Of a DNA stretch of 64,000 nt, positions 41,118 to 64,000 are shown piece by piece (the first letter of the stretch is position 1; every line of letters starts with the position of its first letter). The notes beneath the pieces were generated by a model. It made no database searches and was not told the origin of the DNA. It saw only the letters and a list, made by a program, of their open reading frames with translations. This DNA comes from Oceanispirochaeta sp. (GTDB lineage: Bacteria > Spirochaetota > Spirochaetia > DSM-2461): contig CAXXXD010000002.1 of the NCBI GenBank assembly GCA_963663385.2, positions 1,600,001 to 1,664,000 of the forward strand, given 5' to 3'. Made by a program: the position numbers and the translations under genes.

Positions 41118-45289
<4,172 letters not shown>

Positions 45290-45305
45290 AAGGAGATCCT
45301 ACTGA

Positions 45306-46999: not shown

Positions 47000-47055
47000 A
47001 GATTTGTTTCACCTGAGATAAATCAATTAAATCTGTTGAAAAATTGGAGGACTTA

Positions 47056-48336
47056 ATGAAAAAAAGGAAATCAGTATTTCTGGTAATGCTGGCGGCCCTG
47101 ATAGGACTGACCGGCTGTTCCAAAACGGAAGTAGCCGATGCAAAGGCAGAGAGCGGCAGGATTGAGGGCGATCTGATCGTCTGGAGCTGGGATGTCGCTC
47201 TGGCTCACCTGCAGGAGGTGTCGCCGGCATTCCAGGAACAGTATCCCGATGTTAAATTTAACTTTGAGGAAATGGGAACAACCCAGATCTACAGTAAGAT
47301 GACCACCTCGCTGGCTTCCGGGATCGGTTTGCCGGATATTGTTTCTCTGGAAGGGGAACAGATGACTAAATTCGGAACCAAATTCCCTGATAAATTCATG
47401 GATCTCACTAACCAGATAGATACAGCCATGTTTCTGCCTGTCAAAATCGGAGAATGTACTTCTTCCGGAAAAATCATAGCCTATCCATGGGATGCCGGCC
47501 CCTGCGGTCTTTACTATCGTGCCGATATTTTCGAGGAAGCCGGTATTGATGCTCAGAAAATAAAAACCTGGGATGATTTTATCGATGCCGGAAAGGTTCT
47601 GAAACAGAAAACCGGGGTAGCGATGATGCCCCTGGCTACTTCACGAAAGGATACGTTTTACAGGCTGTTGATGATGCAGCTCGGAACCTTCTATTTTGAT
47701 GAAACCGGTAAAACACAGGTAAACTCTCCCGAATCCATTCAAGCCATGGAAATGGTCAAGAAAATATATGACGCGGGAATCACTATAAACGACGGAAGCT
47801 GGGATGATTACGTCATATCCATCAAGGAAGGTCTGGTCGCTACAGTTCCCGAAGCCGTCTGGCTGATTGGAACAATCAAGGATGCAGCTCCGGATACAGC
47901 CGGAAAGTGGAGGGTTATGCCTTTGCCGGGATTTGATGAGACCAGCAGAAACGGGTCCTCAAACGGAGGATCTGTTCTGGCAATCCCCGCCGTAACCAAA
48001 CATCCGGAAGCCGCCGCTGCCTTTGCCCAATTCGCCATGACTGATAAAGCCGGATTGGTACAGGGTTTTAAAAATTACGGTCTGTACCCATCTTATATTC
48101 CTGTTTACAGCGAAGATATCTTTCAGCAGGGAGATGATTTTTTCGGAGGACAGAAAATTTACAGTGTTTTCAATGAAATTGGAAAAAGCATCCCCGCAGT
48201 AAATTACACCGAAAATTTTGCCGAAACCCTGGACCTTTCCAAAAATGCTGTGGCCAAGGTACTCCTGAAAGGGGCTGAAGTAACCTCAACCATGAACAAT
48301 CTTCAGGATGAGCTGAAAGCCAAATTCGGAAAATAG
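47056..48336 (+). CDS. Sugar ABC solute-binding lipoprotein (LacE-like)
   Basis: LTGC lipobox; GLPDIV, GKWRV, NGGS; GGAGG RBS before ATG 47056. Confidence 0.9.
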   Translation: MKKRKSVFLVMLAALIGLTGCSKTEVADAKAESGRIEGDLIVWSWDVALAHLQEVSPAFQEQYPDVKFNFEEMGTTQIYSKMTTSLASGIGLPDIVSLEGEQMTKFGTKFPDKFMDLTNQIDTAMFLPVKIGECTSSGKIIAYPWDAGPCGLYYRADIFEEAGIDAQKIKTWDDFIDAGKVLKQKTGVAMMPLATSRKDTFYRLLMMQLGTFYFDETGKTQVNSPESIQAMEMVKKIYDAGITINDGSWDDYVISIKEGLVATVPEAVWLIGTIKDAAPDTAGKWRVMPLPGFDETSRNGSSNGGSVLAIPAVTKHPEAAAAFAQFAMTDKAGLVQGFKNYGLYPSYIPVYSEDIFQQGDDFFGGQKIYSVFNEIGKSIPAVNYTENFAETLDLSKNAVAKVLLKGAEVTSTMNNLQDELKAKFGK

Positions 48337-48363
48337 ACATCCGGTTTCCAAATGAATACTGAG

Positions 48364-48392
48364 CGGACTGTTTAACCACAGTCCGTTTTTTT
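48364..48392 (+). terminator. Rho-independent terminator
   Basis: CGGACTG...CAGTCCG followed by a T7 tract. Confidence 0.7.
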
Positions 48393-48405
48393 AAAGAGGA
48401 TATAA

Positions 48406-49785
48406 TTGAAAGAAACAAAGCGGATCCGGAAAGAGATCCTTATACTTATCCTGCCTATTATTCTGGAAAACATACTTCAGATTTCCGCAGGGATTATTTC
48501 AACAGCAATGATCGGCCGCCTGACATCAGCCGATGTCTCAGGTCAGGGGATCTGCCTACGCCTTACCGATACGCTCTGGTGTCTTTACAAGGGGATCAGT
48601 ATTGGGGCAACTGTCCTGGTCGCCAGGGCTTATGGAGAGAAGAACTACAATAAAGGAAGATACATTATAACTCAGACATTCTTAACTGCCGTTCCTCTGT
48701 CATTGATCTTCGCTCTTATCCTGACCTTATATCCTCTCACTTTCCTGCATTTCTTTACAGAGAATCCTCTCATCCTCGGACAGGCTCTGAAGTTTATGAG
48801 AATTATTGTCTTCGGTTTTCCGTTTGTCATATCAATGCAGATCGTTACAGCAGCCTTCCAGGGACATGGCGATACAAAGACGCCGATGTTCATAGCTCTG
48901 CTGGTTAATATTATCAATATAGGTTTAGGACGTGTGTTTATCTTCGGCTTATGGGGAATTCCCTCACTGGGGATCAGCGGGGCAGCATTGTCTCTTGTCA
49001 TATCGCAGGGAAGCGGAGCTTTAACAGGTATTTATCTGCTTTATAGAAAGAAAGGTCTTCTGTACCGGAAAGAAAAAACCTTAAAAATGGCACAGCCTGA
49101 CAGTCGGATTATCAGAGAAATTTACCATATAGGTCTGCCTGCATCCTTTGAAAGCATGTTCTGGCAGTTTTCGGCTATCATTCTCAGTAAAATCATCCTT
49201 TCCTACGGGGATATGCCCTTTGCGGCCTACCAGCTGGGAATCCAGGCTGAGACAATTACAGAGATGCCCGCAATAGGGTTCGGAATCGCGGCAACCACCC
49301 TGACCGGTAAAGCAATAGGCATGCAGAATCCCGAACTCGGAAGGCGCTATTTCAAACAACTTATTCGGCTGTCCCTATCGATAAGTATTGTAACCTCCTT
49401 TCTACTGATCTTTTTCCCCGGAGGATTTATGAATCTGATGACGGACAAACCGGAGTTGAAGGACATCGGGATACTCTATGTGTTTATCATGGGCTTTATT
49501 CAAATACCTCAAAATCTCTCACGGATCTACAATGGTGTTATTCGGGCCGTCGGTTTTCCCCGTATCCCCATGTACGTTGCCGGCATTGGAATCTGGGGAT
49601 TCAGGATACCATTTGCTTTCCTTACAGCCTATGTATTTCATTGGGATATCCTATTGATATGGTTATGCATTGCCCTGGATCAGGCTATACGATACATTCT
49701 CAGTGTTTTTATATATAAAAAAAAGGGGATATTTCAATTGGAACTTTGTAAAACTGAAAAGCTGGTAGAAGGACATGCCGTATGA
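48406..49785 (+). CDS. MATE-family efflux transporter
   Basis: 12-TM pattern; GDTKTPM, GISGAALS. Confidence 0.88.
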   Translation: MKETKRIRKEILILILPIILENILQISAGIISTAMIGRLTSADVSGQGICLRLTDTLWCLYKGISIGATVLVARAYGEKNYNKGRYIITQTFLTAVPLSLIFALILTLYPLTFLHFFTENPLILGQALKFMRIIVFGFPFVISMQIVTAAFQGHGDTKTPMFIALLVNIINIGLGRVFIFGLWGIPSLGISGAALSLVISQGSGALTGIYLLYRKKGLLYRKEKTLKMAQPDSRIIREIYHIGLPASFESMFWQFSAIILSKIILSYGDMPFAAYQLGIQAETITEMPAIGFGIAATTLTGKAIGMQNPELGRRYFKQLIRLSLSISIVTSFLLIFFPGGFMNLMTDKPELKDIGILYVFIMGFIQIPQNLSRIYNGVIRAVGFPRIPMYVAGIGIWGFRIPFAFLTAYVFHWDILLIWLCIALDQAIRYILSVFIYKKKGIFQLELCKTEKLVEGHAV

Positions 49786-50711
49786 ATAGCCGGAATAAAG
49801 GGTCTATTTTTGCGGATTTATCACTAATTATCGTTGCGGCCATCTGGGGATCAGGATTTATTGCCACCCAATATGCGATCGACAGCCAGATGAGTGCAAG
49901 TCTGATTATGGTTCTTCGATTTACAATTGCCTCTCTTGCAATAGGCGGATTTTTTTATAAAGCAGTCCGGACCATTACCTATCGTGAAATAGTGATAGGT
50001 TTACCGGCAGGCGTTCTGCTTTTCCTGGCCTTTTTTGCTCAGACTATCGGGCTTGAATATACGACTCCGTCGAATAATGCCTTCATAACCTCTACAAATG
50101 TTATTATGGTACCGTTTATTTCCTGGATGCTCCTGAAAAAAGCACCGCAGTTGAAGTCCTTTATTCTGGCGACGGTCTGTTTAGCTGGTATCGCCCTGTT
50201 AACCTGGGTTCCCGGGAAGGGGATCAGTTTTAATACGGGAGATCTGCTGACCCTGTTTTGCGCTCTTCTTTTTGCCGGGCATATTTCCTATCTGGATCTG
50301 GCTTCCAAGAAAATATCAGCTTCTAAATTAACCTTTCTTCAGATGATAACGGCGGCAGTTTTATCCTTTTTCTCTCTGATTCTATTTGATCTGAATTCCA
50401 TCAGCCAGGCAGATTTATCCACGGGGCTTATCCCGACTCTCTATCTTGGTTTTTTCAGCACATGCCTCTGTTTTCTTATACAAACCTCCGCACAAAAGAA
50501 AACTACCTCAACCAAGGCTGCTTTATTTTTATCCACAGAGAGTCTATTCGGGAGTTCTTTTTCAGTGGCCCTTGGTTTGGAGCCTCTTACACATGCAATG
50601 ATTCTGGGAGGAGCGTTAATTATGTCTGCTATTCTCTTTTCAGAAATAAAAATCAAGAAAAAATGGCGAAAAGGCCAGTCTGATTTCAGTATGAACGAAA
50701 ATGGAACTTAA
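49782..50711 (+). CDS. DMT (EamA) family transporter
   Basis: AIWGSGF, GDLLTL.CA..FA; duplicated EamA repeat. Confidence 0.88.
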   Translation: MNSRNKGSIFADLSLIIVAAIWGSGFIATQYAIDSQMSASLIMVLRFTIASLAIGGFFYKAVRTITYREIVIGLPAGVLLFLAFFAQTIGLEYTTPSNNAFITSTNVIMVPFISWMLLKKAPQLKSFILATVCLAGIALLTWVPGKGISFNTGDLLTLFCALLFAGHISYLDLASKKISASKLTFLQMITAAVLSFFSLILFDLNSISQADLSTGLIPTLYLGFFSTCLCFLIQTSAQKKTTSTKAALFLSTESLFGSSFSVALGLEPLTHAMILGGALIMSAILFSEIKIKKKWRKGQSDFSMNENGT

Positions 50712-50880
50712 CAGGGTAAGGGCAGGTCATAGCTTTGCAAAATACGACTTATTCAATCTAATCTGATCTGCCTGATTTCCGATGTCAGAAATCAGGCCAG
50801 CCTGTCTTCCTGGAACCTGAGCTATACAACAGAGCCCTATTTCTGAACTATCCTTTCTAATAGATACTACTGCTTCTTTT

Positions 50881-51841
50881 GTAAGCGGTAATTCTTCCCA
50901 CATTGACAGCATTTTAGGCCTGAGGGATCAGATTGAAATATCTTCAGCAGTTAAGTTGTAGGGAAGTAATTTTTCATAATCACTCTGTTTTTCACAGCAG
51001 GGCAATTCCCGGAAGATGAAGTACAAGTAAGCATAAACAGGAAGATTATTCATCTTCGCAGAGTCAACAAGGCTGTACAGAATTGCCGATGATTCAGCAC
51101 CTTTCGGGCTCCCGGCAAAAAGCCAGTTTTTTCTTCCGATTACAAATGGTCTGATTGCATTTTCAGCGCTATTGTTCGAAGGAGTCAATACCGGATTTTC
51201 CAGATACAAAACCAGCTGCTCCCAGTTGATTAATGTGTACTTCATCGCCTTTCCGAACTCTAAAGAGGGAGGGACTTGAGGATAAAGGAGGGTCAGTTTT
51301 TTCTGTAATTTATCCAGTATCGGTTCTGCCCTGTTTTTCCTCTGCTTGTAAAAACCTTTTAGCGAATAATTCATCCCGTAGAGATTCCAGTTCAAATAGG
51401 TCCTTTATCAGGTCGAGAATTTGCTTCGCTTCTGCATCCTTTTTCTTGGTTGCTTCCCAGTATTGGAAGAACTTTCTTCTGGCATGAGCCCAGCATAAAA
51501 CATGTTTTATATCTCCCTCGACTTTCTTTCGAGCGGTACGATATGCCTCAAAATCATCGGTCTGAATCCAGCCTGAAAAATCTTCTAAAAACTCCAAAGG
51601 GATCGTATGGGACCGACCTTGTTCGTACTGGAATATGACACATTTTTTATCAGGATCTCTTCTAAGAAAGACCCACATCCATGATTTATCAGCAGTTTTT
51701 CGCTTCGGCTCTTTTAACACCTGAACCCTTGTCTCATCAGCATTGATGACATTGCCGGATTTGATGTTTTCTTTCAGCAATTCATATAGTGGCTTACAGG
51801 CTGTTGCTGACTTAATCGTAAGATTGCTCAATGTCGCCCGG
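50881..51841 (-). mobile_element. Truncated IS66-family element (right end plus 3' part of tnpC)
   Basis: Begins GTAAGCGGTAATTCTTCCCACATTGACAGC, the reverse complement of the right end at 60864. Related but not identical to the IS66 at 56524-60864; similarity stops at about 51841. Confidence 0.92.
50928..51841 (-). pseudogene. tnpC: IS66 tnpC remnant with +1 frameshift near 51382
   Basis: Two overlapping ORFs match the C-terminal half of intact TnpC; GGGATGAATTAT here versus GGGATAATTAT in the intact copy. Confidence 0.9.
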
Positions 51842-51863
51842 ATGCTCGCCCATGCATCCGGGA

Positions 51864-52013
51864 ATTGGTCAATATAAAATATCTCTGGTGTAAAGCTCAG
51901 GGATATGTTTGATCAAATCAGGATTTAGTTTGCTCCATGGAGTGAACCGCTCCGTGCGGACCCGCTTGCAGGGTGGTGTGGGGCCCGAGGTTAGAAGCCT
52001 CCGGCTACCCGAT
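51864..52013 (+). mobile_element. Group IIC intron 3' fragment (RT tail plus domains V-VI), variant 2
   Basis: Encodes LVNIKYLWCKAQGYV*, then GAACCGC...GGTGGTGTGGGG...TACCCGAT. Confidence 0.9.
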
Positions 52014-52023
52014 TTCTGCAGTC

Positions 52024-52527
52024 TTATTTTTTATTGTCTAACCTCATAATTATAGATGTCCCTGCCGCACCACATTCAATAAAACCATTTCTTTCATATA
52101 ATCTAACTGCAGGATTATCCGGATCAACGCTTAATGAAATTGAATCTATTTTATATTTTGTTTGATTTAATAATTCTTTTAATAATGCTGATCCAATTTT
52201 CTGCCCACGCTTGTGGTAATCGACTGCAATTCCGAGTTCTGGTATATTATCAGCTATGTATCCATATCCTTTATCGCTGGAAGTGAAGTAACGTAGCCAA
52301 ATTGCTCCTATTCTTTTTTTTGTTTTATTATCAATAGCAATGTATCCAAAATCTCCTTTTTTACCCCAATTCTCAACATATTTACGAATTTTGGGATCTT
52401 TGATTATATCACGATCCGGAGGAGGGGAATTTGTATCAACATATATTGATTGGTAGAGCATTTCATATAGAAAATCCTGATCATTGACACCTATTTTTCT
52501 TAATAAAAAATTATTTTCATTTCCCAT
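52024..52527 (-). CDS. GNAT-family N-acetyltransferase
   Basis: PELGIAV...RGQKIG..LL, SLSVD..NPA.RLYER.GF; AT-rich. Confidence 0.9.
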   Translation of the reverse strand: MGNENNFLLRKIGVNDQDFLYEMLYQSIYVDTNSPPPDRDIIKDPKIRKYVENWGKKGDFGYIAIDNKTKKRIGAIWLRYFTSSDKGYGYIADNIPELGIAVDYHKRGQKIGSALLKELLNQTKYKIDSISLSVDPDNPAVRLYERNGFIECGAAGTSIIMRLDNKK

Positions 52528-52849
52528 ACATTTATTCCTTGATTTAAATATTTAATATTATTGAATTATTTCATTACGGTGTAAATATAAAAAATATGTA
52601 TAACTTTTTTATATAAAACCTAATAAATAATTTCAGTTATGATAAAATACTTACCTACACAATATTCTCAGTTCCAAGTTTCTTTATTTACCACCGGAGG
52701 TTAAATCCATAACCAAATATTTCTTTGCATACTTTCCAATTCTATTTTCTATGGCACATAATTTTTTCCCATCCGCCGCAGGCGGATTAATATATTCTGA
52801 TTTTGAAAAACAATTCACTAATCATAATAAATATCCCGCCTTACATAAC

Positions 52850-53170
52850 GAGACTGTAGAAAAACTCAAACTGGGTATTTTCAAGGCTCCCCTGAAAGTA
52901 CTCATTTGGAAAAATCATTCATCTCTTTGATTTCAATATTAAATCCGATTAAAACCGGCTATATTCAACTACAATTGGTTTATCCTACGCTATACCCATT
53001 CTTTAGCACTTTTCCGTATTCCTACGCACTATACTGCTGGATTTTCCCGATATTATGCACGATACAGTACAACAACCACTGTGTCCGGACCTTTTCCGTA
53101 CCCCGTAAAGTAAAGCGATTCAGCTTTTTCATTCCGGCAATATGTCCGAATACAGGTCCCACCGTATACC
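52850..53170 (-). mobile_element. IS1182-family remnant (transposase C-terminus plus right end)
   Basis: TV.PVFG.I...NRFTLRG..KV..QW.L.C.VHNI.K; terminus GAGACTGTAGAAAAACTC at 52850. Confidence 0.7.
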
Positions 53171-53250
53171 GACCGTCATTGCTTCTGAAGTCGGGGGATT
53201 TCAGCCACATGTCATGACCGGCAGGGTAGATAAGCTGGTTGGTTGCCGTA

Positions 53251-53332
53251 TCCATGGAGTGAACCGCTCCGTGCGGACCCGCATGCTCATTTGATGTGGG
53301 GGTTGGAGGTTAAAAGCCTCCGGCTACCCGAT
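53251..53332 (+). mobile_element. Group IIC intron 3' fragment (degenerate DV plus DVI only)
   Basis: TCCATGGAGTGAACCGCTCCGTGCGGACCCGCATGC...GGAGGTTAAAAGCCTCCGGCTACCCGAT. Confidence 0.88.
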
Positions 53333-53351
53333 TTACGCAGACTTTTTAATT

Positions 53352-53627
53352 CTATTTATATGCTTCATCATGGGACCCAATACTTATGGGAATTATAGTT
53401 TCATCTTGGATCAGGAATTCGATTGTTATTCGGTATGAAATATTAATAGATATACTATATAGTTCTGATAAATTCCCTTTTAACTGATGTAAGCGTAGAG
53501 ATGGGTGATTAGGATTTATTTCCATTAGCTGTAAAGTCTTAGAATACTGTCTTTTTATCTCTGGGTGTTTTTTTAAAAATTTTGCAGCTTTTTTTTCATA
53601 ACTATGTGTAAATATGATTTTAGGCAT
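53352..53627 (-). CDS. Type II toxin, RelE/ParE (YafQ-like) superfamily
   Basis: 91 aa; HPSLRLH.LKG.L...SISIN.SYRI...IGSHD..Y; overlaps the antitoxin stop codon. Confidence 0.85.
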   Translation of the reverse strand: MPKIIFTHSYEKKAAKFLKKHPEIKRQYSKTLQLMEINPNHPSLRLHQLKGNLSELYSISINISYRITIEFLIQDETIIPISIGSHDEAYK

Positions 53628-53877
53628 CAGTTATTCTTTCTATATGGTCTTCAATACTCCCGGTATAATAATTTCCTTCTTGTATATCTTTTTTTGCTTC
53701 AACTAATGCGGCTTCAAGTTCACATTCTCTTAAGCGGTTGTATTCATCAATAGAAAGAACAATATATTTAATTTTACCTCTGACAGTTATAACTGCTTCA
53801 TTCTCCTCAGAGATCACTTGATCCAGAACTGAGACACCTTTAATTTTCAAATCATTGGCTGTTATACTATTAAACAT
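53620..53877 (-). CDS. Type II antitoxin, Phd/YefM family
   Basis: 85 aa; ITANDLK..G...VITVRGK..Y.VL...EY. Confidence 0.85.
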   Translation of the reverse strand: MFNSITANDLKIKGVSVLDQVISEENEAVITVRGKIKYIVLSIDEYNRLRECELEAALVEAKKDIQEGNYYTGSIEDHIERITDA

Positions 53878-54066
53878 TTTTTTACCTCATTATCAATAGT
53901 ACGATTAATTGTGCTCTAAATCAATTCTATAACAGTTGAATTATTATGTATTTTCTAAGAAAGGGTAACCTCGCAAATTATCTTGGACCAATCTCTTATG
54001 AACCTATCTAACTGACAAAGATCATTTCACAAAACAGTTGAATCAGTTTTCTCATCCTCCGAACAT

Positions 54067-54105
54067 AAAAAAAGGAGCAACTCCCCGCCAAGGTTTCTGC
54101 TCCTT
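54067..54105 (-). terminator. Terminator-like hairpin with U-tract on the minus strand
   Basis: AAGGAGCA...TGCTCCTT preceded by a poly-A run on the plus strand. Confidence 0.5.
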
Positions 54106-54408
54106 AAATCTCACTCCCTCCCCAAAAGGAGGAAACTTAACTGTTACTTCTTTTTCGGATATCTTTACAAAAATTTCAAGCCCTTGGAAAAGATTTTTTC
54201 TGGAATAAACCAAATCATTGTCCAAAATGCGGAAGCCGGGTACTCTGGGGCCATGGTTTTGTTTACCGCTACTTCAATGAATTTCCGGAAGCCCTTCTTC
54301 TCAAACGATACCGTTGTCCCTGCTGCGGAGCAGTGTACCAATAGAAATATCTGACTAGGCGATCCTGGGGCTGGTCGCAAACAAGTTTGCTGCTCGCCCA
54401 TGCAACCA

Positions 54409-54906
54409 GGGTGTTTCTATGGAATACAGGATCCGGAAACTCAATGAGTATATCCGGGCCCTGGTCACAGCTCCGCTGTTGCTCGGGTATGCGGCCGAGC
54501 TGGATGAACTATTATGGAATCTCCCAGTATTACAGCCCTCTTCAGAACCTAGATGATTGGCTCCGCAGGAGGATTCGCATGTGCTATTGGAAACAATGGC
54601 GTTATCCCAGAACAAAAGTCAGGAAACTGATGGAATTGGGTATCCCTAAAGATTTTGCAATTATTACAGGTGCCAGTAGTAAATCCTACTGGCATCTCTC
54701 CAAGTCATACGCTACCAATGCGGCGATGTCCAACAAATGGCTGGAAGAGCAAGGATTGGTCAATATCAAATACCTCTGGTGCAAAGCCCAGGGATATGTT
54801 TGATCAAATCAGGATTTTAGTTTGCTCCATGGAGTGAACCGCCCTGTGCGGACCCGCATGCAGGGTGGTGTGGGGGCTGGAGGTTAAAAGCCTCCGGCTA
54901 CCCGAT
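54409..54906 (+). mobile_element. Group IIC intron 3' fragment (maturase region plus DV-DVI), variant 2, carrying a 40-nt insertion
   Basis: GVSMEYRIRKLNEYIR / WMNYYGISQ...LVNIKYLWCKAQGYV*, then intact DV-DVI ending CCCGAT at 54906. Confidence 0.9.
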
Positions 54907-56600
54907 TTATGAAGGAGTTTTTTAATTATATCTAACTCCAAATATTTGTTCTGTACTTTACATTGTTTTCAAAAGTCCAACCACTTCAGTTACACGCGTG
55001 GAATGTCTGGAGGAAGCCGGAATGCAAAACCGGGAGCCCATGTACAAGAATGTGATAGAAGGCTCAGTTCCAGAGGCGAGTCAGCCAATGATGACGATGC
55101 CCCGTGGGTATGGAATAGGGTAAATCACAGGGTTGTCCGGGGACAGTGTACAGTCTTATTCGGGGAGATCTGTCTGCGGGGCGGTGATGTGTTCTTTTAA
55201 ACTGAGAATCCGGTAGGGAACCGGAAAACCAATCCCCGGCTTTTCAGAGGGTGACACTCTGGAAATGAGCAAGATTATCTTGAGTACAAATAAGTCGTCA
55301 CAGGTTTAAAAGCACGGTATAGCATCAACGGGAGCAATCTCGTTGATTAGCAGGCAGAAGTCAGCAGAAGGCATAGTAACCAACGCCCGGAGTAATGTCC
55401 GGTTCACGGTGAAGGCCTGAACATTTCACAAGGAGGAGCCTTATGGTTCTCAAAGGAACAATTTTAGCACTGGCCGAAATAACTTTTGGCGAATTATGGA
55501 GAAACCAGCCTTGAACGATTCTATGATGGATTTGATTTTATCATCTGAAAACATGCGTAAGGCCTGGAAACAGGTCAAACGCAATGGCGGCAGTCCGGGA
55601 GTCAATGGCATGACTATTGAGAAATTTCCGGAATATCTACGCAGAAGATGGAGTAAAATCAAGCAAGCTTTGCTTTTGGGGTACTATGTACCCTCTCCGG
55701 TGCTCAGGGTGGAAATCCCCAAGAGATCCGGAGGTATGCGAATGCTGGGTATTCCCACTATTTTAGACAGGGTTATCCAACAGGCTATTTCACAGGTTTT
55801 GAATCCTCTATTCGATTCGGATTTTTCGGAAAGCAGTTTTGGATTCAGGCCGGGAAGATCGGCTCACGGAGCAGTACGACAGGTAAATACCTATGTTAAA
55901 TCGGGATACAAGTATGCAGTTGATCTGGACTTGGAAAAGTTCTTTGATACGGTAAATCACGATATTCTGATGCATTGTGTGGCTAAGAAAGTCCGGGACA
56001 AATCAGTCCTGAAATTGATTGGCCGCTACCTGAGAGCCGGTATTATGGACAAGGATGGGATTAAAATCCCTACTGAAATCGGGACTCCTCAAGGAGGCCC
56101 GTTATCACCTCTACTTTCCAATATCCTTCTTGATAATTTCGATAAGGAGTTGGAACGGAGAAACCTGTGCTTTGCACGTTACGCAGATGATGCATTAATT
56201 GTATCAAAACGCCTGTGTGATGGAAAAGCTATATTGACTGAAATAAGTGATTATCTCAGTCGCAGGTTAAAATTGGTTGTAAACCAGAAGAAAAGCAAGG
56301 TGTGTAAAATCTCCGAATGCAGTTTTCTGGGATTCACTTTCAAGGGTAAGAAAATCCGATGGACTGAATCATCCTTTCGGGAGTTTCAATATCAGTTAAA
56401 GCATTTGACAAGACGGTCTTGGGGGGTATCAATGGAATATCGATTCCGGAAACTTAACGAGTATATCCGGGGGTGGATGAACTATTATGGTATTTCCCAA
56501 TATTACAGACCTCTACAATCAATGTAAGCGGTAATTCTCTCCATCTTGCGTGATTTCGAAATGATTATATACTCCATGAAAAATCATGGAGGAACCTAAT

Positions 56601-56882
56601 ATGACCAACTGGAATTGGCCTGAATTAATCGAAGAACAAAAACAGAGCGGGAAAACAATTTCTGAGTTCTGCGCAGATAAAGGAGTTCACTATACATCTT
56701 TCTACAAGAATCGAAAAAAATTAAAGAAAAGCAGTTTTATTGAAATCAAACAGAAAGCCCCGGTATTACAGCCACAAAACCCCACAATGATACTCAGATA
56801 CAAGGATTTCTCATTGGATCTGGCATCAGGTTATAACAGGCAATCCCTGATAGATCTTCTGAAGATTCTGAGAGAGTTGTAA
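56601..56882 (+). CDS. tnpA: IS66 accessory protein TnpA
   Basis: W..LIEEQ..SG.TI.EFC...G...SFY..RKK; GGAGG RBS before ATG 56601 (alternative start 56586). Confidence 0.85.
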   Translation: MTNWNWPELIEEQKQSGKTISEFCADKGVHYTSFYKNRKKLKKSSFIEIKQKAPVLQPQNPTMILRYKDFSLDLASGYNRQSLIDLLKILREL

Positions 56883-59215
56883 TGTTTGGTACGCCCGACA
56901 TGGCTGTACGCTAATGAGGTGAAAGTCCTCTACAGGTGCCCACGTATAGTGAACATGCTATACCAACTGTTAGCTGAAGGCAAGGGCATTTCCGCGAGGG
57001 AATGTCTGGAGGAAGCCGGAATGCAAAACCGGGAGCCCATGTACAAGAATGTGATAGAAGGCTCAGTTCCAGAGGCGAGTCAGCCAATGATGACGATGCC
57101 CCGTGGGTATGGAATAGGGTAAATCACAGGGTTGTCCGGGGACAGTGTACAGTCTTATTCGGGGAGATCTGTCTGCGGGGCGGTAATGTGTTCTTTTAAA
57201 CTGAGAATCCGGTAGGGAACCGGAAAACCAATCCCCGGCTTTTCAGAGGGTGACACTCTGGAAATGAGCAAGATTATCTTGAGTACAAATAAGTCGTCAC
57301 AGGTTTAAAAGCACGGTATAGCATCAACGGGAGCAATCTCGTTGATTAGCAGGCAGAAGTCAGCAGAAGGCATAGTAACCAACGCCCGGAGTAATGTCCG
57401 GTTCACGGTGAAGGCCTGAACATTTCACAAGGAGGAGCCTTATGGTTCTCAAAGGAACAATTTTAGCACTGGCCGAAATAACTTTTGGCGAATTATGGAG
57501 AAACCAGCCTTGAACGATTCTATGATGGATTTGATTTTATCATCTGAAAACATGCGTAAGGCCTGGAAACAGGTCAAACGCAATGGCGGCAGTCCGGGAG
57601 TCAATGGCATGACTATTGAGAAATTTCCGGAATATCTACGCAGAAGATGGAGTAAAATCAAGCAAGCTTTGCTTTTGGGGTACTATGTACCCTCTCCGGT
57701 GCTCAGGGTGGAAATCCCCAAGAGATCCGGAGGTATGCGAATGCTGGGTATTCCCACTATTTTAGACAGGGTTATCCAACAGGCTATTTCACAGGTTTTG
57801 AATCCTCTATTCGATTCGGATTTTTCGGAAAGCAGTTTTGGATTCAGGCCGGGAAGATCGGCTCACGGAGCAGTACGACAGGTAAATACCTATGTTAAAT
57901 CGGGATACAAGTATGCAGTTGATCTGGACTTGGAAAAGTTCTTTGATACGGTAAATCACGATATTCTGATGCATTGTGTGGCTAAGAAAGTCCGGGACAA
58001 ATCAGTCCTGAAATTGATTGGCCGCTACCTGAGAGCCGGTATTATGGACAAGGAGGGGATTAAAATCCCTACTGAAATCGGGACTCCTCAAGGAGGCCCG
58101 TTATCACCTCTACTTTCCAATATCCTTCTTGATAATTTCGATAAGGAGTTGGAACGGAGAAACCTGTGCTTTGCACGTTACGCAGATGATGCATTAATTG
58201 TATCAAAACGCCTGTGTGATGGAAAAGCTATATTGACTGAAATAAGTGATTATCTCAGTCGCAGGTTAAAATTGGTTGTAAACCAGAAGAAAAGCAAGGT
58301 GTGTAAAATCTCCGAATGCAGTTTTCTGGGATTCACTTTCAAGGGTAAGAAAATCCGATGGACTGAATCATCCTTTCGGGAGTTTCAATATCAGTTAAAG
58401 CATTTGACAAGACGGTCTTGGGGGGTATCAATGGAATATCGATTCCGGAAACTTAACGAGTATATCCGGGGGTGGATGAACTATTATGGTATTTCCCAAT
58501 ATTACAGACCTCTACAATCAATTGATGAATGGCTGAGAAGAAGAATCCGTATGTGCTACTGGAAACAGTGGCGTTACCCCAGAACAAAAGTCAGGAAACT
58601 GATGGAGCTGGGTATTCCGAAAGATTTTGCCATTATGACAGGAGCAAGTAGTAAGTCCTACTGGCATCTGTCAAAAGGCTATGCAACCAATGCCGCTATG
58701 TCCAATAAATGGTTGGAAGAGCAAGGATTGATCAATATTAAGGCCCTCTGGTGTAAAATCCAGGGCTACACATGATCAAATTATAGTTTCGTTTGCTCCA
58801 TGGAGTGAACCGCCCTGTGCGGACCCGCATGCAGGGTGGTGTGGGGGCTGGAGGTTAAAAGCCTCCGGCTACCCGATTTGACCTGAACGAATACCGGATC
58901 TTTCTGAGACCCGGCACGACAGACTTAAGAAAAGCGATCAACGGATTATCTCTGTTTATCCAGAATGAAATGAATCATGATTTATTCGCCAAATCGCTAT
59001 TCCTCTTTTGTAACCGGCAGAGAAAACTTCTGAAAATTGTCTACTGGGATAATACCGGTTTTTGTCTCTGGCAGAAGAGACTGGAAGAGAACAGATATCC
59101 CTGGCCGGAAACAGATGAAGATGCTAAAGAGATCAGCATGGATGAATTGAAAATGCTCCTGACGGGAATAGACTTTTTCAAAGCGCATAAAAAATTATCA
59201 TATTCCCGTATTTAG
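56882..59215 (+). CDS. tnpB: IS66 TnpB split by intron (exons 56882-56888 and 58878-59215; 114 aa spliced)
   Basis: Spliced sequence ATG TTT G|TT GAC gives MFVDLNEYRIFLRPGTTDLRKAINGL...LFLFCNR...KIVYWD.TGF.LW.KRLE, all in frame. Confidence 0.9.
56889..58877 (+). mobile_element. Full-length group IIC intron copy B (1989 nt)
   Basis: 5' GTACGCCCGACATGG; short DV with CGC triad (GAACCGCC); 3' CCCGAT; RT lacks an endonuclease domain. Confidence 0.93.
57495..58775 (+). CDS. ltrA: Group II intron reverse transcriptase/maturase (426 aa)
   Basis: R.LGIPT..DR.IQQA, SFGFRPGRS, DLEKFFD, GTPQGGPLSPLL, RYADD, FLGF, GWMNYY. Confidence 0.96.
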   Translation: MEKPALNDSMMDLILSSENMRKAWKQVKRNGGSPGVNGMTIEKFPEYLRRRWSKIKQALLLGYYVPSPVLRVEIPKRSGGMRMLGIPTILDRVIQQAISQVLNPLFDSDFSESSFGFRPGRSAHGAVRQVNTYVKSGYKYAVDLDLEKFFDTVNHDILMHCVAKKVRDKSVLKLIGRYLRAGIMDKEGIKIPTEIGTPQGGPLSPLLSNILLDNFDKELERRNLCFARYADDALIVSKRLCDGKAILTEISDYLSRRLKLVVNQKKSKVCKISECSFLGFTFKGKKIRWTESSFREFQYQLKHLTRRSWGVSMEYRFRKLNEYIRGWMNYYGISQYYRPLQSIDEWLRRRIRMCYWKQWRYPRTKVRKLMELGIPKDFAIMTGASSKSYWHLSKGYATNAAMSNKWLEEQGLINIKALWCKIQGYT

Positions 59216-59254
59216 AGATTTTATAATTATAGAAACTTTGATAGAATTCCCCGT

Positions 59255-60817
59255 ATGGAGAATGAAGAACAGCATTTAAGAGAACAACTTGATGCACAAA
59301 AAATAGAAATTGCTGAACTGAAAAGACTTAATGCCATTCTCCAGGAGCAAGTAGCAAAACTGAACCTCCTGCACTTTGGAACAAAATCAGAGAAGATAAC
59401 TGCCGAAGATAAGAAACAAGCTTCTCTCTTCAATGAAGCGGAAGATAGTGCTTTTGCTCAGAATGATGAAGAGCAGGAGAAAAATGTTATTGAAACGGTT
59501 GAGGTCGGTTCCTACAAGAAAAATATTAAAAAATCCGGCCGGAAACCTCTGCCGGCAGATCTGCCGAGAGAGATCGTGGAATATGATATTCCGGATAAAG
59601 ATAAGATCTGTGCCTGCGGAACAGAAAAGACCTGTATCGGTGAAGATGTTTCCGAGAGAGCAAAAATTATTCCGTCAAAAGTCGTTGTTATTCAGGAACG
59701 TAGAAAAAAGTACTCCTGCAAGAATTGTGAAGGGACGACTCTTGATGAAGCTGCTGTACAGACCGCAGAAGGAGCAAAGCATCTGGTCGCGGGCAGTATT
59801 GCCGATGAAAGCCTGCTCGCTTGGAGTATAAGCGAAAAGTTTGAGTTCGCTCTTCCTTTCTACAGGCAATCAAAACGGTTAAACCAGATAGGCATACCGA
59901 TCCCCCGGGCGACATTGAGCAATCTTACGATAAAATCGGCAACGGCATGTAAGCCTCTATATGATTTGCTGAAAGAAAACATTAAATCCGGTTCCATTAT
60001 TAATGCCGATGAGACGAGAGTTCAGGTTCTAAAGGAACCGAAACGAAAAGCTTCAGATAAATCATGGATGTGGGTCTTTCTCAGAGGAGATCCCGATAAA
60101 AAATGTGTCATATTTCAGTATGAGCAAGGCCGATCCCATGCAATTCCGTTGGATTTCTTGGAAAATTACTCTGGCTGGGTTCAAACTGATGATTTTGAGG
60201 CCTACCATACTGCCCGAAAAAAAGTTGATGGAGATATAAAGCATGTCTTATGCTGGGCCCATGCCAGAAGAAAGTTCTTCCAATATTGGGAATCAACCAA
60301 GAAAAAAGATGCAGAAGCAAAGCAAATTCTCGACCTGATAAAGGATCTGTTTGAACTGGAATCATTACGGGATAATTATTCGCTAAAAGGGTTTCATAAA
60401 CAGCGACAAAATAGAGCAGAACCGATACTAGATAAGTTACAGAAAAAACTGACGAAGCTTTATCCTCAAGTACCTCCTTCTTTAGAGTTCGGTAAGGCGA
60501 TGAAGTATACATTGAGCAACTGGGAGCAGTTGGTTCTATATCTGAAAAATCCTGTTTTGACTCCTTCGAACAATAGCGCTGAAAATGCAATCAGACCCTT
60601 CGTAATCGGGAGAAAAAACTGGCTTTTTGCCGGAAGCCCGAAAGGTGCTGAATCATCGGCAATTCTGTACAGTCTCGTTGAATCTGCGAAGATGAACAAT
60701 CTTCCAGTTTATGCTTACTTGTACTTTATCTTCCGGGAATTGCCCTGCTGTGAAAAACAGAGTGATTATGAAAAATTACTTCCCTATAATTTAACTGCTG
60801 AAGATATTGCAATCTGA
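59255..60817 (+). CDS. tnpC: IS66 DDE transposase TnpC
   Basis: FGTKSEK, zinc ribbon, ADET, CWAHARRKF, NN.AE.AIRP...GRKNWLF. Confidence 0.95.
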   Translation: MENEEQHLREQLDAQKIEIAELKRLNAILQEQVAKLNLLHFGTKSEKITAEDKKQASLFNEAEDSAFAQNDEEQEKNVIETVEVGSYKKNIKKSGRKPLPADLPREIVEYDIPDKDKICACGTEKTCIGEDVSERAKIIPSKVVVIQERRKKYSCKNCEGTTLDEAAVQTAEGAKHLVAGSIADESLLAWSISEKFEFALPFYRQSKRLNQIGIPIPRATLSNLTIKSATACKPLYDLLKENIKSGSIINADETRVQVLKEPKRKASDKSWMWVFLRGDPDKKCVIFQYEQGRSHAIPLDFLENYSGWVQTDDFEAYHTARKKVDGDIKHVLCWAHARRKFFQYWESTKKKDAEAKQILDLIKDLFELESLRDNYSLKGFHKQRQNRAEPILDKLQKKLTKLYPQVPPSLEFGKAMKYTLSNWEQLVLYLKNPVLTPSNNSAENAIRPFVIGRKNWLFAGSPKGAESSAILYSLVESAKMNNLPVYAYLYFIFRELPCCEKQSDYEKLLPYNLTAEDIAI

Positions 60818-61300
60818 TCCATCAGTCCTAAAATGCTGTCAATGTGGGAAGAATTACCGCTTACCAATCAATTGATGAATGGCTGAGAAGAAGAATCCGT
60901 ATGTGCTACTGGAAACAGTGGCGTTACCCCAGAACAAAAGTCAGGAAACTGATGGAGCTGGGTATTCCGAAAGATTTTGCCATTATGACAGGAGCAAGTA
61001 GTAAGTCCTACTGGCATCTGTCAAAAGGCTATGCAACCAATGCCGCTATGTCCAATAAATGGTTGGAAGAGCAAGGATTGATCAATATTAAGGCCCTCTG
61101 GTGTAAAATCCAGGGCTACACATGATCAAATTATAGTTTCGTTTGCTCCATGGAGTGAACCGCCCTGTGCGGACCCGCTTGCAGGGTGGTGTGGGGGCTG
61201 GAGGTTAAAAGCCTCCGGCTACCCGATTTATACGGCCCGCATTTTACCAACATCTTCCGCGCCCCCGCCGAAGCACAGGACGTGCGGAGGTGGATTTCTT

Positions 61301-63985
61301 TCAATCTTTGTACTCCCTGAAACTTCTCATAAGACCATCAAATGAAGTCGGTTTATACTTATGAAAAGCCGCTTCATCAACAAAGACAAAATCAAAATGT
61401 ATATCTTTCTGAACTCTGTTGATGTCTTCACACCACTGCTTAAGTCTTTTCATCTTTTCCGGTACATCCAAATCTTCAAGACCTTTTGTTTCGACAATTA
61501 CTATCTCTTTATTTGTGACTTTCACAAGAAAATCCGGGTAGTAATTTGAAGGAAAACCATCTTTATTGATGTAATCAATAGTAAAGTGAACTGCTAGGAA
61601 GTTTTTGGCATAGGAAATAATGTCGGTACAATCTTCAAGAAAAGCTGCAAATTCAAGTTCAAGATGGCTGTCTCCAATAATTTTATTAAAAACAGATTTC
61701 TTGGGTATGATGAAACCTTGATCTTTAGCAACAAAGGGTCGTGTTTTTCTCAATTTTATATAATCGCGAATCTCTGCATCGCCTTTATCCTGCACAGTCA
61801 GTTCATTAATATATTTCTTGAATGATTCAATGATCGTTTTTGTGGCCTGTAGTTCAGATAAATTTCTTAGTGTATTCAGATCATCGATTTCAACGGTTTC
61901 TTGAAATAAATGATTGGCAATGAAATCCTTAACTTTGCCATAAAGAACATCGTATCCGCTGACAAGCCGTAAATCTTTCATTATTACCTGAGCGAAGTAA
62001 CCTACGACACTTCTATAATCTGTTACCGCAGTTGTATCCAGGTGCGTGACATGATTTACCTCGTTGGTGGTAATATCCTTAAAAACAATTTCACGTTTTT
62101 GTTCTTCTGAAAATTCAAGATATTCAATCTTTTGATTACCGAAAGATGAAGGGTTTAAGTTGGCAAAATTTTTATATTCACGATATATTCGGGGAGTAAG
62201 AACAGGTATTTCGATATCCAACTTTTCAATATCCTTGTTGGTATTTTCATTATCAACTTCAACAATGATCGGTGCTTTCGGTGCTGTGCCTTCCCCCATT
62301 GGTTTCCGTTCAAGCTCAACACCTTCACTTTGGATTGATTCAACAAAATCCATAAATGCATCAGTTCCGACAATGCTGACATATTCTTCTATGTCAGAAC
62401 CAAAGTACATACGGCGCAAACCACGGCCAAGTGTTTGTTCCGGTAAGATATTGCTTTTAGAAGAATATGCACGAAGTCCAACTATAGTTGTTACATTTCG
62501 AACATCCCAGCCTTCTTTCAGCATTAGAACTGATACGATGGCTTTGTACGGGCTATCCCAGCTATCAATTTTATTGGATTCATCTCGTAATTTGTCTAAT
62601 TCTTCTTTTTTCTTACCTGTTGTGGATTCTGAGATTTCACCACTTTTATTGGTATGAATAGTCATCACTGAATCTTTAAACTCCGGGAAGCTTGATTCAA
62701 GATATTCTGCAACTTCATCACAGTTTTTTGTGTCATCTGTCATAATGAAAAGAATGGCCTTTTTTCCAAGCTTTTCATGTTCAGAGTACACCTTCCGCCA
62801 TTCTTCAACTCCGAGATTAATGTAGTCGGAATACCGTTCTGTAAAAAGTGAGCTTTGTTTTTCTGCAAGTTTTGCTCGACTTGCACTATCAGGTAATACC
62901 GGATGCTTTACAACATTTTGTGAAATGGCTTCTACTAACGGATAATCAGAAATTGTCTGAACAAAAATTGCTCCGTTATTGTGTTTAGGTGTTGCAGTCA
63001 CATCAACCTGTAAAGAAAGAAAATGATCCTTTTGAAGGAGCTTATTATGTATATCCTGAATTGATTTAAACCAAGCAAGTTTAGAATCATGAATATGATG
63101 GGCTTCGTCATTTAACACAACAAGCTCGTCAATATCTCTAACAATCTCACCAAGATCAACTTTGGAGTCTGTTGTTTTTCCAGTCGGACGTTTACCAAGG
63201 AAATAATCCATTGTGTTTTCAGCAGCAAAACTTGCCTCGGCAGTATCAGCTGAATAAACACGATGAATATTGGTCAAAAAGATATTTCCTGTTTTGCGGA
63301 CAATACTGACATCATCCTGTATATGAAGTGTCAATTGAAAATCATCCTGCCAATTCTGACCGTCATACCCGTTGTCCGGAAGAATCGGGTCTTCAAAGAA
63401 AATTCGCAGTCCGTCAAAATCAGTTCTGATCCGGTCAAGAACAATGATATTAGGGGCAATTAAAAGGAAGTTTCTGGCAAGTTCCGAGTCTTCTTCATAG
63501 GTTTTATGAAAGTACGCCCATGCAAGGATCAGACTCATGACTTTTGTTTTACCGCTTCCGGTAGCCATTTTAACTACAAGCCGCCTCCATTCCTCATCAA
63601 ACATTCCCGCAGAAACCGCCTGGGAGGAATCGTAGCGAAGCATATCGTATTTATCTTTAACCTTTACCACATCATAAAGATAGATAACGGTTTCCACGGC
63701 TTCTCTTTGTGCATAGTAATACTTGAAAGGAATAACTGAACCATCGGCCTTGGGAATGAGGTGTTCGGTTTTAAACCACCAATTCAGCAAAGAAATGCTG
63801 GTATTGCTGGCTCCTTCATAATTTTTCTCCCTCCAGCCATGGATTTCTTTCCTTAACGAATGAACCAGAGGAGGCAGCAATTTTTCATAACTCGATTCCC
63901 TTAATGCTTCGTCAGCAGGGAACCAGCGGACATCCGGGTGAAGAATTTCATAAGGGGATGATGGAAAATCGGGATGTATTGCCAT
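61301..63985 (-). CDS. Type III restriction enzyme Res subunit-like (SF2 helicase plus PD-(D/E)XK nuclease)
   Basis: MATGSGKT, DEAHH, TATP, EGWD, Q..GRGLR, C-terminal YYPDF...VETKG. Confidence 0.88.
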   Translation of the reverse strand: MAIHPDFPSSPYEILHPDVRWFPADEALRESSYEKLLPPLVHSLRKEIHGWREKNYEGASNTSISLLNWWFKTEHLIPKADGSVIPFKYYYAQREAVETVIYLYDVVKVKDKYDMLRYDSSQAVSAGMFDEEWRRLVVKMATGSGKTKVMSLILAWAYFHKTYEEDSELARNFLLIAPNIIVLDRIRTDFDGLRIFFEDPILPDNGYDGQNWQDDFQLTLHIQDDVSIVRKTGNIFLTNIHRVYSADTAEASFAAENTMDYFLGKRPTGKTTDSKVDLGEIVRDIDELVVLNDEAHHIHDSKLAWFKSIQDIHNKLLQKDHFLSLQVDVTATPKHNNGAIFVQTISDYPLVEAISQNVVKHPVLPDSASRAKLAEKQSSLFTERYSDYINLGVEEWRKVYSEHEKLGKKAILFIMTDDTKNCDEVAEYLESSFPEFKDSVMTIHTNKSGEISESTTGKKKEELDKLRDESNKIDSWDSPYKAIVSVLMLKEGWDVRNVTTIVGLRAYSSKSNILPEQTLGRGLRRMYFGSDIEEYVSIVGTDAFMDFVESIQSEGVELERKPMGEGTAPKAPIIVEVDNENTNKDIEKLDIEIPVLTPRIYREYKNFANLNPSSFGNQKIEYLEFSEEQKREIVFKDITTNEVNHVTHLDTTAVTDYRSVVGYFAQVIMKDLRLVSGYDVLYGKVKDFIANHLFQETVEIDDLNTLRNLSELQATKTIIESFKKYINELTVQDKGDAEIRDYIKLRKTRPFVAKDQGFIIPKKSVFNKIIGDSHLELEFAAFLEDCTDIISYAKNFLAVHFTIDYINKDGFPSNYYPDFLVKVTNKEIVIVETKGLEDLDVPEKMKRLKQWCEDINRVQKDIHFDFVFVDEAAFHKYKPTSFDGLMRSFREYKD

Positions 63986-64000
63986 TATTTTTTACCCCCT

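Follow-up and report, generated by a model that had tools for sequence, protein, structure and literature searches.

Group IIC-attC introns in a probably decayed integron cassette array of Oceanispirochaeta sp.

Introduction

How did a row of genes arise that looks like an integron cassette array and contains neither an integrase gene nor an attC site? This question is raised by the right part, from 51844 to 64000, of a 64,000-nucleotide stretch of the genome of Oceanispirochaeta sp. (C2:1600001-1664000, called the window in the following; C1 to C4 denote the contigs of the genome, L-numbers loci and G-numbers the genomes of relatives; positions without a prefix are those of the window). The region consists of minus-strand genes and of 3' ends of group II introns located on the plus strand between them. 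A reading made from the DNA letters only, referred to here as the sequence-only reading, had proposed that the genes are cassettes whose attC sites were hit by a group IIC intron and then lost. According to the analysis described here, it is very likely that the region is a decayed, distal part of an integron array in which the cassettes have been split from their attC sites by a group IIC-attC intron.

Results

Integrase gene and attC sites

A search of the whole genome with the NCBI integrase model TIGR02249 (cut-off 265 bits) yielded one match over the cut-off. It scores 381.2 bits, contains no internal stops and lies 24 kb beyond the right edge of the window (C2:1688005-1688940, plus strand); 14 control genomes gave no match over the cut-off. 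The corresponding intI gene (C2:1687729-1688955, plus strand) encodes the Pfam domains Phage_int_SAM_4 and Phage_integrase. In the interval between the window and intI all larger open reading frames (ORFs) outside of introns and insertion sequences (ISs) are located on the minus strand, and four intron copies are located on the plus strand. The 100 to 170 nt left of each of these four copies form a long imperfect hairpin which starts with ...ATAAC and ends with ...TTG. Paralogous hairpins without an intron occur in three further clusters, which are located on contigs C1, C3 and C4.

These hairpins were analyzed as attC sites with a covariance model trained on 11 sites of the same genome, which differs from the model of IntegronFinder; 22 of its 30 pairs show compensatory changes. 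A strict scan for AAC...GTT hairpins detected only some of the attC sites together with many false ones, and the covariance model was used instead. It gave 21 matches in the 212,760 nt searched. Both the integrase gene and the attC sites expected by the sequence-only reading are present in this genome. All four attC sites of the intI-linked array carry an intron, and so do 2 of the 17 sites in the three other clusters. The model found no match in the window, and with the filters switched off over 44000-64000 the best score was 10.9 bits (E 0.71) in comparison with at least 31.9 bits for real sites, in agreement with the claimed loss of attC from the window. The units in the window do not possess an attC for each cassette; only R'' halves of attC sites and two R' cores are left. 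All eight cassette boundaries counted from intI carry an intron or an intron remnant. According to Pfam the cargo of the array comprises Abi_alpha, a PIN-like protein, a methylase together with Res, a RelE/Phd pair and a GNAT protein, and introns enclose three-gene units of 4.4 and 5.9 kb.

Insertion point of the intron

The window contains only one complete intron, intron B (56889-58877, plus strand), which interrupts the tnpB gene of an IS66-family element behind its second codon. An IS66 tnpB without this insertion is present elsewhere in the genome; it reads GTAATGTTTG|TTGACCTG (...ATGTTTG|TTGACC) and represents the empty site. Because of this empty site intron B can be defined as exactly GTACG...CCCGAT with a length of 1989 nt. 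For the intI-proximal attC site four intron-free paralogues were found which read ...CTTG|TTATGT and have flanks identical to those of the occupied copy. These empty sites place the insertion between G and TT. The insertion point TTG|TTAT is located inside the R'' box and corresponds to RYYYAA|C on the gene strand; the proposal that the flank retained beside each intron end is an inverse core without its C was confirmed by the empty sites, which show RYYYAA with the C lost.

The published target consensus of group IIC-attC introns is TTGT/T (PMC7923331). Remoter members of the same reverse transcriptase (RT) clade do have TTGT/T. A loop in domain D1 of the intron covaries with the last letters of the 5' exon in three intron lineages: it is CAAU in the intron studied here, together with ATTG or TTTG, ACAA in the TTGT lineage, and UAAC in a third lineage from G007, after GTTA. 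We propose that this loop is the exon-binding site 1 (EBS1). In intron B the putative EBS1 loop is located at 57083-57094 (GCCAAUGAUGAC), where CAAU would pair with ATTG and less fully with TTTG. Because of the covariation between loop and exon, the one-base shift of the insertion point appears to be real and encoded by the intron. In the third lineage (L118:146-2118, G007:C1:1046146-1048118) the insertion follows GTTA of the R box and lies two bases further along than in the intron studied here; the loop, UAAC, matches.

Ribozyme, protein and copies of the intron

Intron B and the split intron A (described below) score over the gathering thresholds of the Rfam models RF02001, RF01998 and RF00029, which reveals domains D1 to D6 with D5/D6 at the 3' end. 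In an alignment, domain D5 opens with CCGC, whereas most group II introns have GAGC at this position; we take CCGC to be a mark of class C. The intron protein of 426 aa (ORF 57495-58775) consists only of the Pfam domains RVT_1 and GIIM, an endonuclease domain is absent. A comparison with solved structures in the PDB gave the best values for the GsI-IIC RT (2.8e-127) and for the group II intron reverse transcriptase/maturase 7uim (1.8e-102), followed by the remoter matches 6me0 (Maturase reverse transcriptase, 1.4e-37) and LtrA (5g2x, 3.7e-33).

Using blastn, 18 stretches of the genome matched the intron: seven full copies with 99.5-100% identity, one copy split by IS66, and fragments. Eleven of these 18 stretches lie within C2:1651864-1687224, all on the plus strand. 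Tabulated together with their flanks, the copies cluster in the intI-linked array and are all antisense to the cassettes, which agrees with the sequence-only reading. The 5' flanks of eight copies comprise six attC hairpins, one terminator hairpin and one IS66 site, and all end with xTTG. A hairpin as 5' exon and an intron-binding site 1 (IBS1) of 3-4 nt without IBS2, the features given for class IIC in PMC7923331, are both found here. The copy at the terminator (C2:97525-99513) is identical and is located behind the hairpin AAGGGATG...CATCCCTT and before TTTTATTTG; all attC clusters searched lie far away from it. Within the C1 cluster, two attC sites enclose a fragment of a different RT (C1:27551-28158, minus strand), which has 42-51% identity to the intron RT and the opposite orientation.

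RT lineage

The nearest RTs, with 79-81% identity, come from spirochaete metagenome-assembled genomes (MAGs), where the introns have the same TTG|...|TTAT flanks in attC sites. Next are RTs of Desulfobacterota (54-62%), whose introns are inserted in long attC-like hairpins with TTGT|...|T, and RTs of introns in plasmid class 1 integrons (50-52%), which show the same layout intI(+) - cassette(-) - intron(+) as found here. Intron copies from Bacillaceae have RTs with 40-46% identity and begin with GTGCG; four copies with a read 5' flank (L064, L065, L077, L079) follow a GC-rich hairpin and a T run. An RT tree was calculated from 28 RTs after exclusion of four broken sequences; the target labels were assigned by eye from the flanks, and the sequences are not a curated reference set. 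In this tree the RT studied here belongs to a clade (97/97) of introns in attC-like hairpins with two class 1 integron introns as sister (88/88). Altogether it is grouped with 14 attC-inserted introns, these two among them. The Bacillaceae form a separate clade (100/100), of which the two members with read flanks follow terminators. The placement proposed as a check of the sequence-only reading was therefore with the attC-inserted introns and apart from the terminator-targeting ones. By class, target strand, orientation and RT lineage, the intron is a member of the group IIC-attC introns.

These data bear on the simplest alternative, namely that ordinary terminator-targeting IIC introns accumulated in a dump of mobile elements without any link to an integron. 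One copy does follow a terminator hairpin, another one is located in an IS gene, and the window itself lacks both attC and intI. We nevertheless assign a negligible probability to this explanation, as intI is found 24 kb away with the cassettes oriented toward the window, the empty sites prove insertion into attC, and the RT tree as well as the cassettes of relatives (see below) contradict a terminator intron.

Intron ends and cassettes in the window

Five plus-strand intron 3' ends are located at 52013, 53332, 54906, 58877 and 61227; each reads ...CCGGCTACCCGAT and is followed by TT. The five copies form the repeat families D4 (56 nt, 73-100% identity) and D5 (36 nt, 92-100% identity). The Rfam D5/D6 model RF00029 reached or exceeded its gathering score at three of the ends (54837-54906, 58808-58877 and 61158-61227). 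At 52013 and 53332 the Rfam search gave no match even at E<=1, and these two ends were identified by similarity alone (blastn 82.8% over 151 nt and 89.0% over 82 nt). Rfam models for D1-D4 flag two intron 5' regions in the window, at 54990 and 56988. Convergent ORFs end at 52024, 53352 and 61301, that is 10, 19 and 73 nt from an intron end, and Pfam assigns the adjacent cassette genes to GNAT, RelE/HigB-like plus Phd-like, and ResIII. The five ends, their TT, the three distances and the assignment of the genes as GNAT, RelE toxin and Res had all been described correctly from the letters. Two of the ends need a correction: the one at 58877 does not adjoin a cassette but belongs to the full intron inside tnpB, and that at 61227 belongs to the intron split by IS66.

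The distal edge of the array is an IS66-family remnant (50880-51843, minus strand; Pfam DDE_Tnp_IS66 and IS66_C, repeat D8), which comprises a terminal repeat and about 300 C-terminal aa of the transposase with frameshifts; the homology to intact IS66 stops at 51843. It is followed by intron fragment 1 (51844-52013, plus strand). The last ~150 nt of an older intron lineage correspond to 51864-52013, with the above-mentioned 82.8% identity to intron B and 89-91% to copies from G007, and 51844-51863 is the right part of a 41-nt mini-insert, as seen by comparison of this filler with 54371-54411. The GNAT cassette (52014-52849, minus strand) begins with G|TTATGT (52843-52849), contains the GNAT gene at 52024-52527 and ends with the R'' half ...TGCAGAA| on the gene strand. 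An IS end abuts this cassette at 52850, as at other attC R' boxes. This IS1182-like element (52850-53255, plus strand) represents the left part of a 1791-bp IS and was recognised by homology to six other copies, Pfam DDE_Tnp_1_6, its ends and the AAC duplication; it has an internal deletion of about 200 nt and is cut at 53255. Intron fragment 2 (53251-53332, plus strand), the last 82 nt with a damaged D5, is fused to it via TCCAT, which both have in common.

The toxin-antitoxin cassette (53333-53933, minus strand) starts with G|TTATAG (53927-53933) and carries a Phd-like gene (53620-53877), a RelE/HigB-like gene (53352-53627) and the R'' half ...TGCGTAA|. The core-like heptamers reported upstream of the GNAT and toxin-antitoxin units were found again; on the plus strand they read ACATAAC (52843-52849) and CTATAAC (53927-53933), equivalent to GTTATGT and GTTATAG on the gene strand. 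After a stretch for which no relative was found (53934-54335), with a 51-aa zinc-ribbon ORF stub at 54189-54341 (plus strand) that gave only sub-threshold Pfam matches and has no second copy in the genome, follows intron fragment 3 (54336-54906, plus strand). It comprises the last ~570 nt of the older lineage, matches RT residues 299-426 in tblastn (65.8%) and RF00029 with 48 bits, contains the 41-nt mini-insert (54371-54411) and frameshifts, and is 91-92% identical to G007 copies. The 93-nt stub mentioned by the sequence-only reading proved to be a cassette 3'-end remnant at 54907-54999 (minus strand, gene strand ...TTCATAA|), the first ~25 nt of which resemble the 3' flank of the toxin-antitoxin cassette.

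Intron A is present in two parts. The 5' part (55000-56523, plus strand; intron positions ~111-1634, 99.9% to intron B, Rfam D1-D4 matches) lacks the first ~110 nt and the attC, and the 3' part is located at 60865-61227 (plus strand; positions ~1628-1989, RF00029 44.3 bits). Between them lies an IS66-family element (56524-60864, plus strand) with tnpA, tnpB and tnpC according to Pfam, GTAAGCG... ends and an 8-bp duplication CAATCAAT at 56516-56523 and 60865-60872, which we take to be the defining features of the IS66 family; intron B resides in its tnpB. The last unit is the 3' end of a three-gene cassette (61228-64000, minus strand; Pfam, ORFs) with the R'' half ...CGTATAA| and the Res gene at 61301-63985. 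Its methylase and a 206-aa ORF run past the window up to an intron-occupied attC at C2:1667153-1667244 (model match L009:3153-3250).

Contigs from public runs of two studies span 51159-52873 and 53306-54849 with zero differences, which argues against an assembly artefact at the decayed junctions; these contigs are not independent of the data of the genome itself, and one run may be its source sample.

Fragments 1-3 are 83-89% identical to the full copies versus 89-92% to the G007 copies, and fragments 1 and 3 share the 41-nt mini-insert. Since they are closer to the G007 copies than to the near-identical full copies, the distal units probably carry an older intron lineage and the proximal units a recent burst. 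Such an order fits growth of the array at attI.

The mini-insert is a unit of ~41 nt with the imperfect inverted ends CTGGTCGCAAAC...CCATGCAACCAGG. Besides the old intron copies (54371-54411, 51844-51863), blastn-short detected it in intergenic regions (C2:1793500-1793544, C2:1311373-1311411, C2:1093132-1093168, C1:573399-573426), and it is also present in D1 of an intron of a relative (L019).

Cassettes and introns in related genomes

Of 10 other genomes of the genus, 9 encode an integrase over the cut-off, and so do 15 of 18 genomes sampled from the family. Close RT relatives occur in only 6 of 31 genomes, own genome included. Homologues of the RelE protein with 84-96% identity are part of the arrays in G003 and G002 and lie elsewhere in G005; the homologue in G009 shows 75% identity. 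In these four genomes the RelE cassette ends with ...TCTGAGTAAC or ...TCTGTGTAAC, followed by attC or its start, and the attC model scores this site in G002 and G005 only. The cassette in the window ends with ...TCTGCGTAA|intron at the position where the relatives have ...GTAAC and attC. For homologues of the toxin-antitoxin genes, the check proposed by the sequence-only reading, attC sites starting at the same AAC, came out in its favour. The whole toxin-antitoxin cassette is 90-91% identical in G003 and G007 and 78% identical in G002; in G003 and G002 it starts exactly at 53333.

In G007, a sister species from the same genus, introns occupy six of the eight attC sites left of intI, and three further intron 3' ends there are truncated. 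Behind its copy of the toxin-antitoxin cassette lies the intron fragment known from the window, with an identical D5 lesion. It has been trimmed more on both sides; about 64 nt of intron and about 230 nt of IS are left. G002 contains 11 attC sites in 20 kb next to intI and zero introns.

An IS at the R' arm and the loss of attC bodies

The 1791-bp IS has the ends GAGACTGTAGAAAAA... and encodes a 512-aa transposase of the IS1182 type (DUF772, DDE_Tnp_1, DDE_Tnp_1_6). It is inserted in the R' arm of attC in the form ...ATAAC|IS|AACGCC... and is present in four complete copies (L011:11788-13578, equivalent to C1:31788-33578; C4:1180653-1182443; C4:1191852-1193642; C3:287670-289460) and several partial ones. 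In three of the four complete copies, those whose right flank was compared with the attC model (all except C3:287670-289460), the IS sits at the R' box and is flanked by a 3-bp duplication of AAC. The same IS end was also observed beside an attC in a spirochaete MAG (L019). The element may target attC specifically, a preference for which its family is not known. In the IS1111-attC group, ISs choose attC sites in a fixed orientation; unlike these, the 1791-bp IS has an IS1182-type DDE transposase and 3-bp AAC duplications at the R' box, not a DEDD enzyme as in IS110/IS1111.

At C4:1178568-1182443 the order IS-attC-intron is intact. The same order is found behind the toxin-antitoxin cassette of the window, where everything from an internal position of the IS to intron position ~1908 has been lost. 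The joint of fragment 2 lies in the 5-nt string TCCAT common to IS and intron, and the IS copy at 52850 has a second internal deletion between short repeats. The deletions that removed the attC bodies also cut into neighbouring IS copies, and the losses appear to be internal deletions between selfish elements and not an effect of the intron alone. The sequence-only reading was right in that attC was hit by the intron and then lost; the loss itself appears to have come about by deletions that extend into the adjacent ISs.

Truncated intron copies might also have arisen by abortive retrohoming, in which reverse transcription started from the 3' end and stopped early. All four truncated copies have kept the exact 3' end and lack the 5' end, and 5'-truncated introns in cassette arrays are ascribed to incomplete reverse transcription in PMC7923331. 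Such an event should spare the 5' exon with the attC body, however, and none is left in the window. Moreover, fragment 2 is fused with the interior of an IS whose place elsewhere is beyond the attC, an internal piece is also missing from fragment 1, intron A borders on a cassette remnant and not on an attC, and the further trimming of the same fragment on both sides in G007 fits stepwise erosion. As a general explanation we consider abortive retrohoming rather unlikely; for some of the copies it is possible.

It had further been suggested that the intron ends act as repeated separators, which as homologous recombination sites would reshuffle or delete cassettes after the loss of attC. Direct repeats of 56-150 nt with 73-100% identity are present between the cassettes, and full copies with 99.5-100% identity lie in direct orientation along the array. 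None of the examined junctions resembles a crossover of two intron copies; all are associated with microhomology or with ISs, and 3' ends are the expected survivors of any deletion that spares the neighbouring gene. This part of the sequence-only reading has so far found no support, and recombination of this kind seems quite improbable to us.

Reciprocal insertion of IS66 and the intron was observed (56516-60872; C2:1669040-1673630; C3:747912-750265). IS66 elements interrupt the intron at two positions, about 1628-1634 and 1788-1795, and an intron interrupts tnpB in one of about 11 IS66 copies. The intron at C2:1667245-1673830 is split by an IS66 on the minus strand, which contains two ORFs on the plus strand (427 and 254 aa) at C2:1670827-1672871 (L009:6827-8871); the layout of this pair suggests an IS21-like element. 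Contigs break at IS66 copies, and attC clusters adjoin two contig ends (C3:320-361, C4:1198349-1198390, C4:1172001-1199760, C1:26341-37492).

Discussion

Taken together, the integron interpretation of the sequence-only reading was largely right, as intI, the attC sites, the orientation of introns and cassettes, the RT and the relatives of the toxin-antitoxin cassette all agree with it. Several points weigh against it. The target TTG/TT, which is unambiguous from the empty sites, is not the published TTGT/T. The intron is not strictly bound to attC, as identical copies follow an ordinary terminator (C2:97526) and reside in an IS66 tnpB. The attC model was trained on the genome's own sites, and a very divergent attC in the window could escape it. 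No trace of attC was found upstream of the toxin-antitoxin core, and the stretch 53934-54335 has no other blastn match in the genome. GNAT homologues, present in 2 of 37 other genomes of the family, are not located beside a recognisable attC. In the 500 nt upstream of intI only a candidate attI core was found (GATATAAC, plus strand, ~270 nt upstream). Finally, the four contigs break at IS66 copies, and the links between the arrays are not spanned by the assembly.

Group IIC-attC introns such as S.ma.I2 of Serratia marcescens use the attC bottom strand as their target; they lie antisense to the cassettes and part a gene from its own attC, and terminator hairpins can also be used (PMC3001079, PMC7923331, PMC8876359). 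The intron studied here shares with this group the class C ribozyme, an RT without endonuclease domain, the antisense orientation and the splitting of gene and attC. Orientation and splitting match the description of S.ma.I2 (PMC3001079, PMC8876359), which supports the assignment of the region to an intron-split array. It differs from the S.ma.I2 group in the target TTG/TT instead of TTGT/T with an EBS1 loop changed to match, in its start GTACG, in its spirochaete host, and in the occupation of 8 out of 8 cassette boundaries in the intI-linked array. A scan of the 5' part of intron B for promoter-like sequences, as for the outward promoter of S.ma.I2, gave 2 sites compared with 1.0 +/- 1.0 in shuffled sequences and thus no support for such a promoter. 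The 5'-truncated integron introns UHB.F1, H.ha.F1 and H.ha.F2 are likewise known as 3' ends in arrays, and the IIC-attC example among them is antisense to the cassettes (PMC7923331). In contrast to these, the window contains four remnants in a row with readable junctions, and the intact precursor is found in the same genome and genus.

The array resembles sedentary chromosomal integrons in the divergent orientation of intI and array, the mostly promoterless cassettes and the cargo of defence and toxin-antitoxin genes. The uninvaded array of G002 has 11 attC sites in 20 kb; the array studied here has only 4 sites in 24 kb, its last 12 kb contain 0, and every attC left in the intI-linked array is split by an intron. 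A literature search of partial coverage, and hence a weak negative, revealed no array with every boundary occupied, no case of an intron and an IS sharing the two attC arms and no reciprocal nesting of intron and IS66. The element is of a known kind; unusual are the saturation of the array and the one-base shift of the insertion point.

We propose the following course of events. The region 51844-64000 would be the distal and oldest third of a sedentary chromosomal integron, whose cassettes extend leftward from intI over ~36 kb on the minus strand. By retrohoming, a IIC-attC intron would have entered all eight cassette units at their 3' boundary, antisense to the cassette genes. It would read the folded bottom strand of attC as a 5'-exon hairpin, with the short EBS1 pairing with the last 3-4 letters (xTTG), and entry between G and TT of the R'' box would part the gene from its attC. 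The four units nearest to intI carry near-identical, presumably recent copies with the attC body still intact; two of the recent copies would then have been struck by IS66, and one of these IS66 elements by the intron in turn (copy B). The four units of the window would carry the older lineage (fragments 1-3) or a truncated recent copy (A). Here the block consisting of the intron 5' part, the attC body and the attC-targeting IS would have been eroded from inside by deletions at short repeats. The survivors would be the intron 3' end, which adjoins the gene of the cassette, and at one unit also the R' core beside the next cassette. Deletions within the selfish block would be tolerated and those reaching the cassettes would not, so that the outer ends, the intron 3' end and the left IS end with the R' core, persist. 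An insert of 2 kb that separates G from TT in the R'' arm should prevent the bottom strand from folding a complete R box; for this reason the split cassettes are probably no longer substrates of IntI.

A productive role of the introns has also been considered. In the model of Leon and Roy, as summarised in PMC7923331, introns are intermediates in the making of new cassettes, in which an ordinary gene acquires an attC by recombination between an intron copy beside this gene and another copy located in an attC. Large multi-gene units, for example the restriction-modification unit, would have arisen in this way. The genome contains the identical copy behind a terminator (C2:97526) together with copies in attC sites, and the intron-bounded units of 4.4 and 5.9 kb carry three genes each. 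The terminator copy, however, is sense-oriented behind its gene and does not show the order gene-intron-attC which the model requires, and no hybrid junction was found. We regard this model as very unlikely for the present array.

IIC-attC introns are known mainly from clinical class 1 integrons, where they mostly occur as single copies; their rarity puzzled the authors of PMC3001079. In contrast, the chromosomal integrons of the present genome and of its sister species have nearly all of their attC sites occupied, and old and new waves follow each other with the distance from intI. Such a natural series could be used to study a possible block of cassette excision by an intron in the R'' box, the rate at which a blocked array decays, and the adaptation of the short guide sequence of the intron to a recombination site. 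It also means that integron finders based on attC will halt at the last intact site and miss ~12 kb of a former array with defence and toxin-antitoxin cargo. In a bolder version, to which we give somewhat less than even chances, two unrelated selfish elements of this genus would have specialised on the arms of attC, the IIC-attC intron on R'' and the IS1182-type IS on R'. The EBS1 register would have shifted at least three times after the R box (G|TT, GT|T, GTTA|T), and, with every attC of the integrase-linked array split, excision and reshuffling of cassettes by IntI would have ceased; the locked array would then have fossilised by internal deletions. If this is true, it would be a natural route to the shutdown of sedentary integrons and a counter-example to the view of introns as rare guests of integrons.

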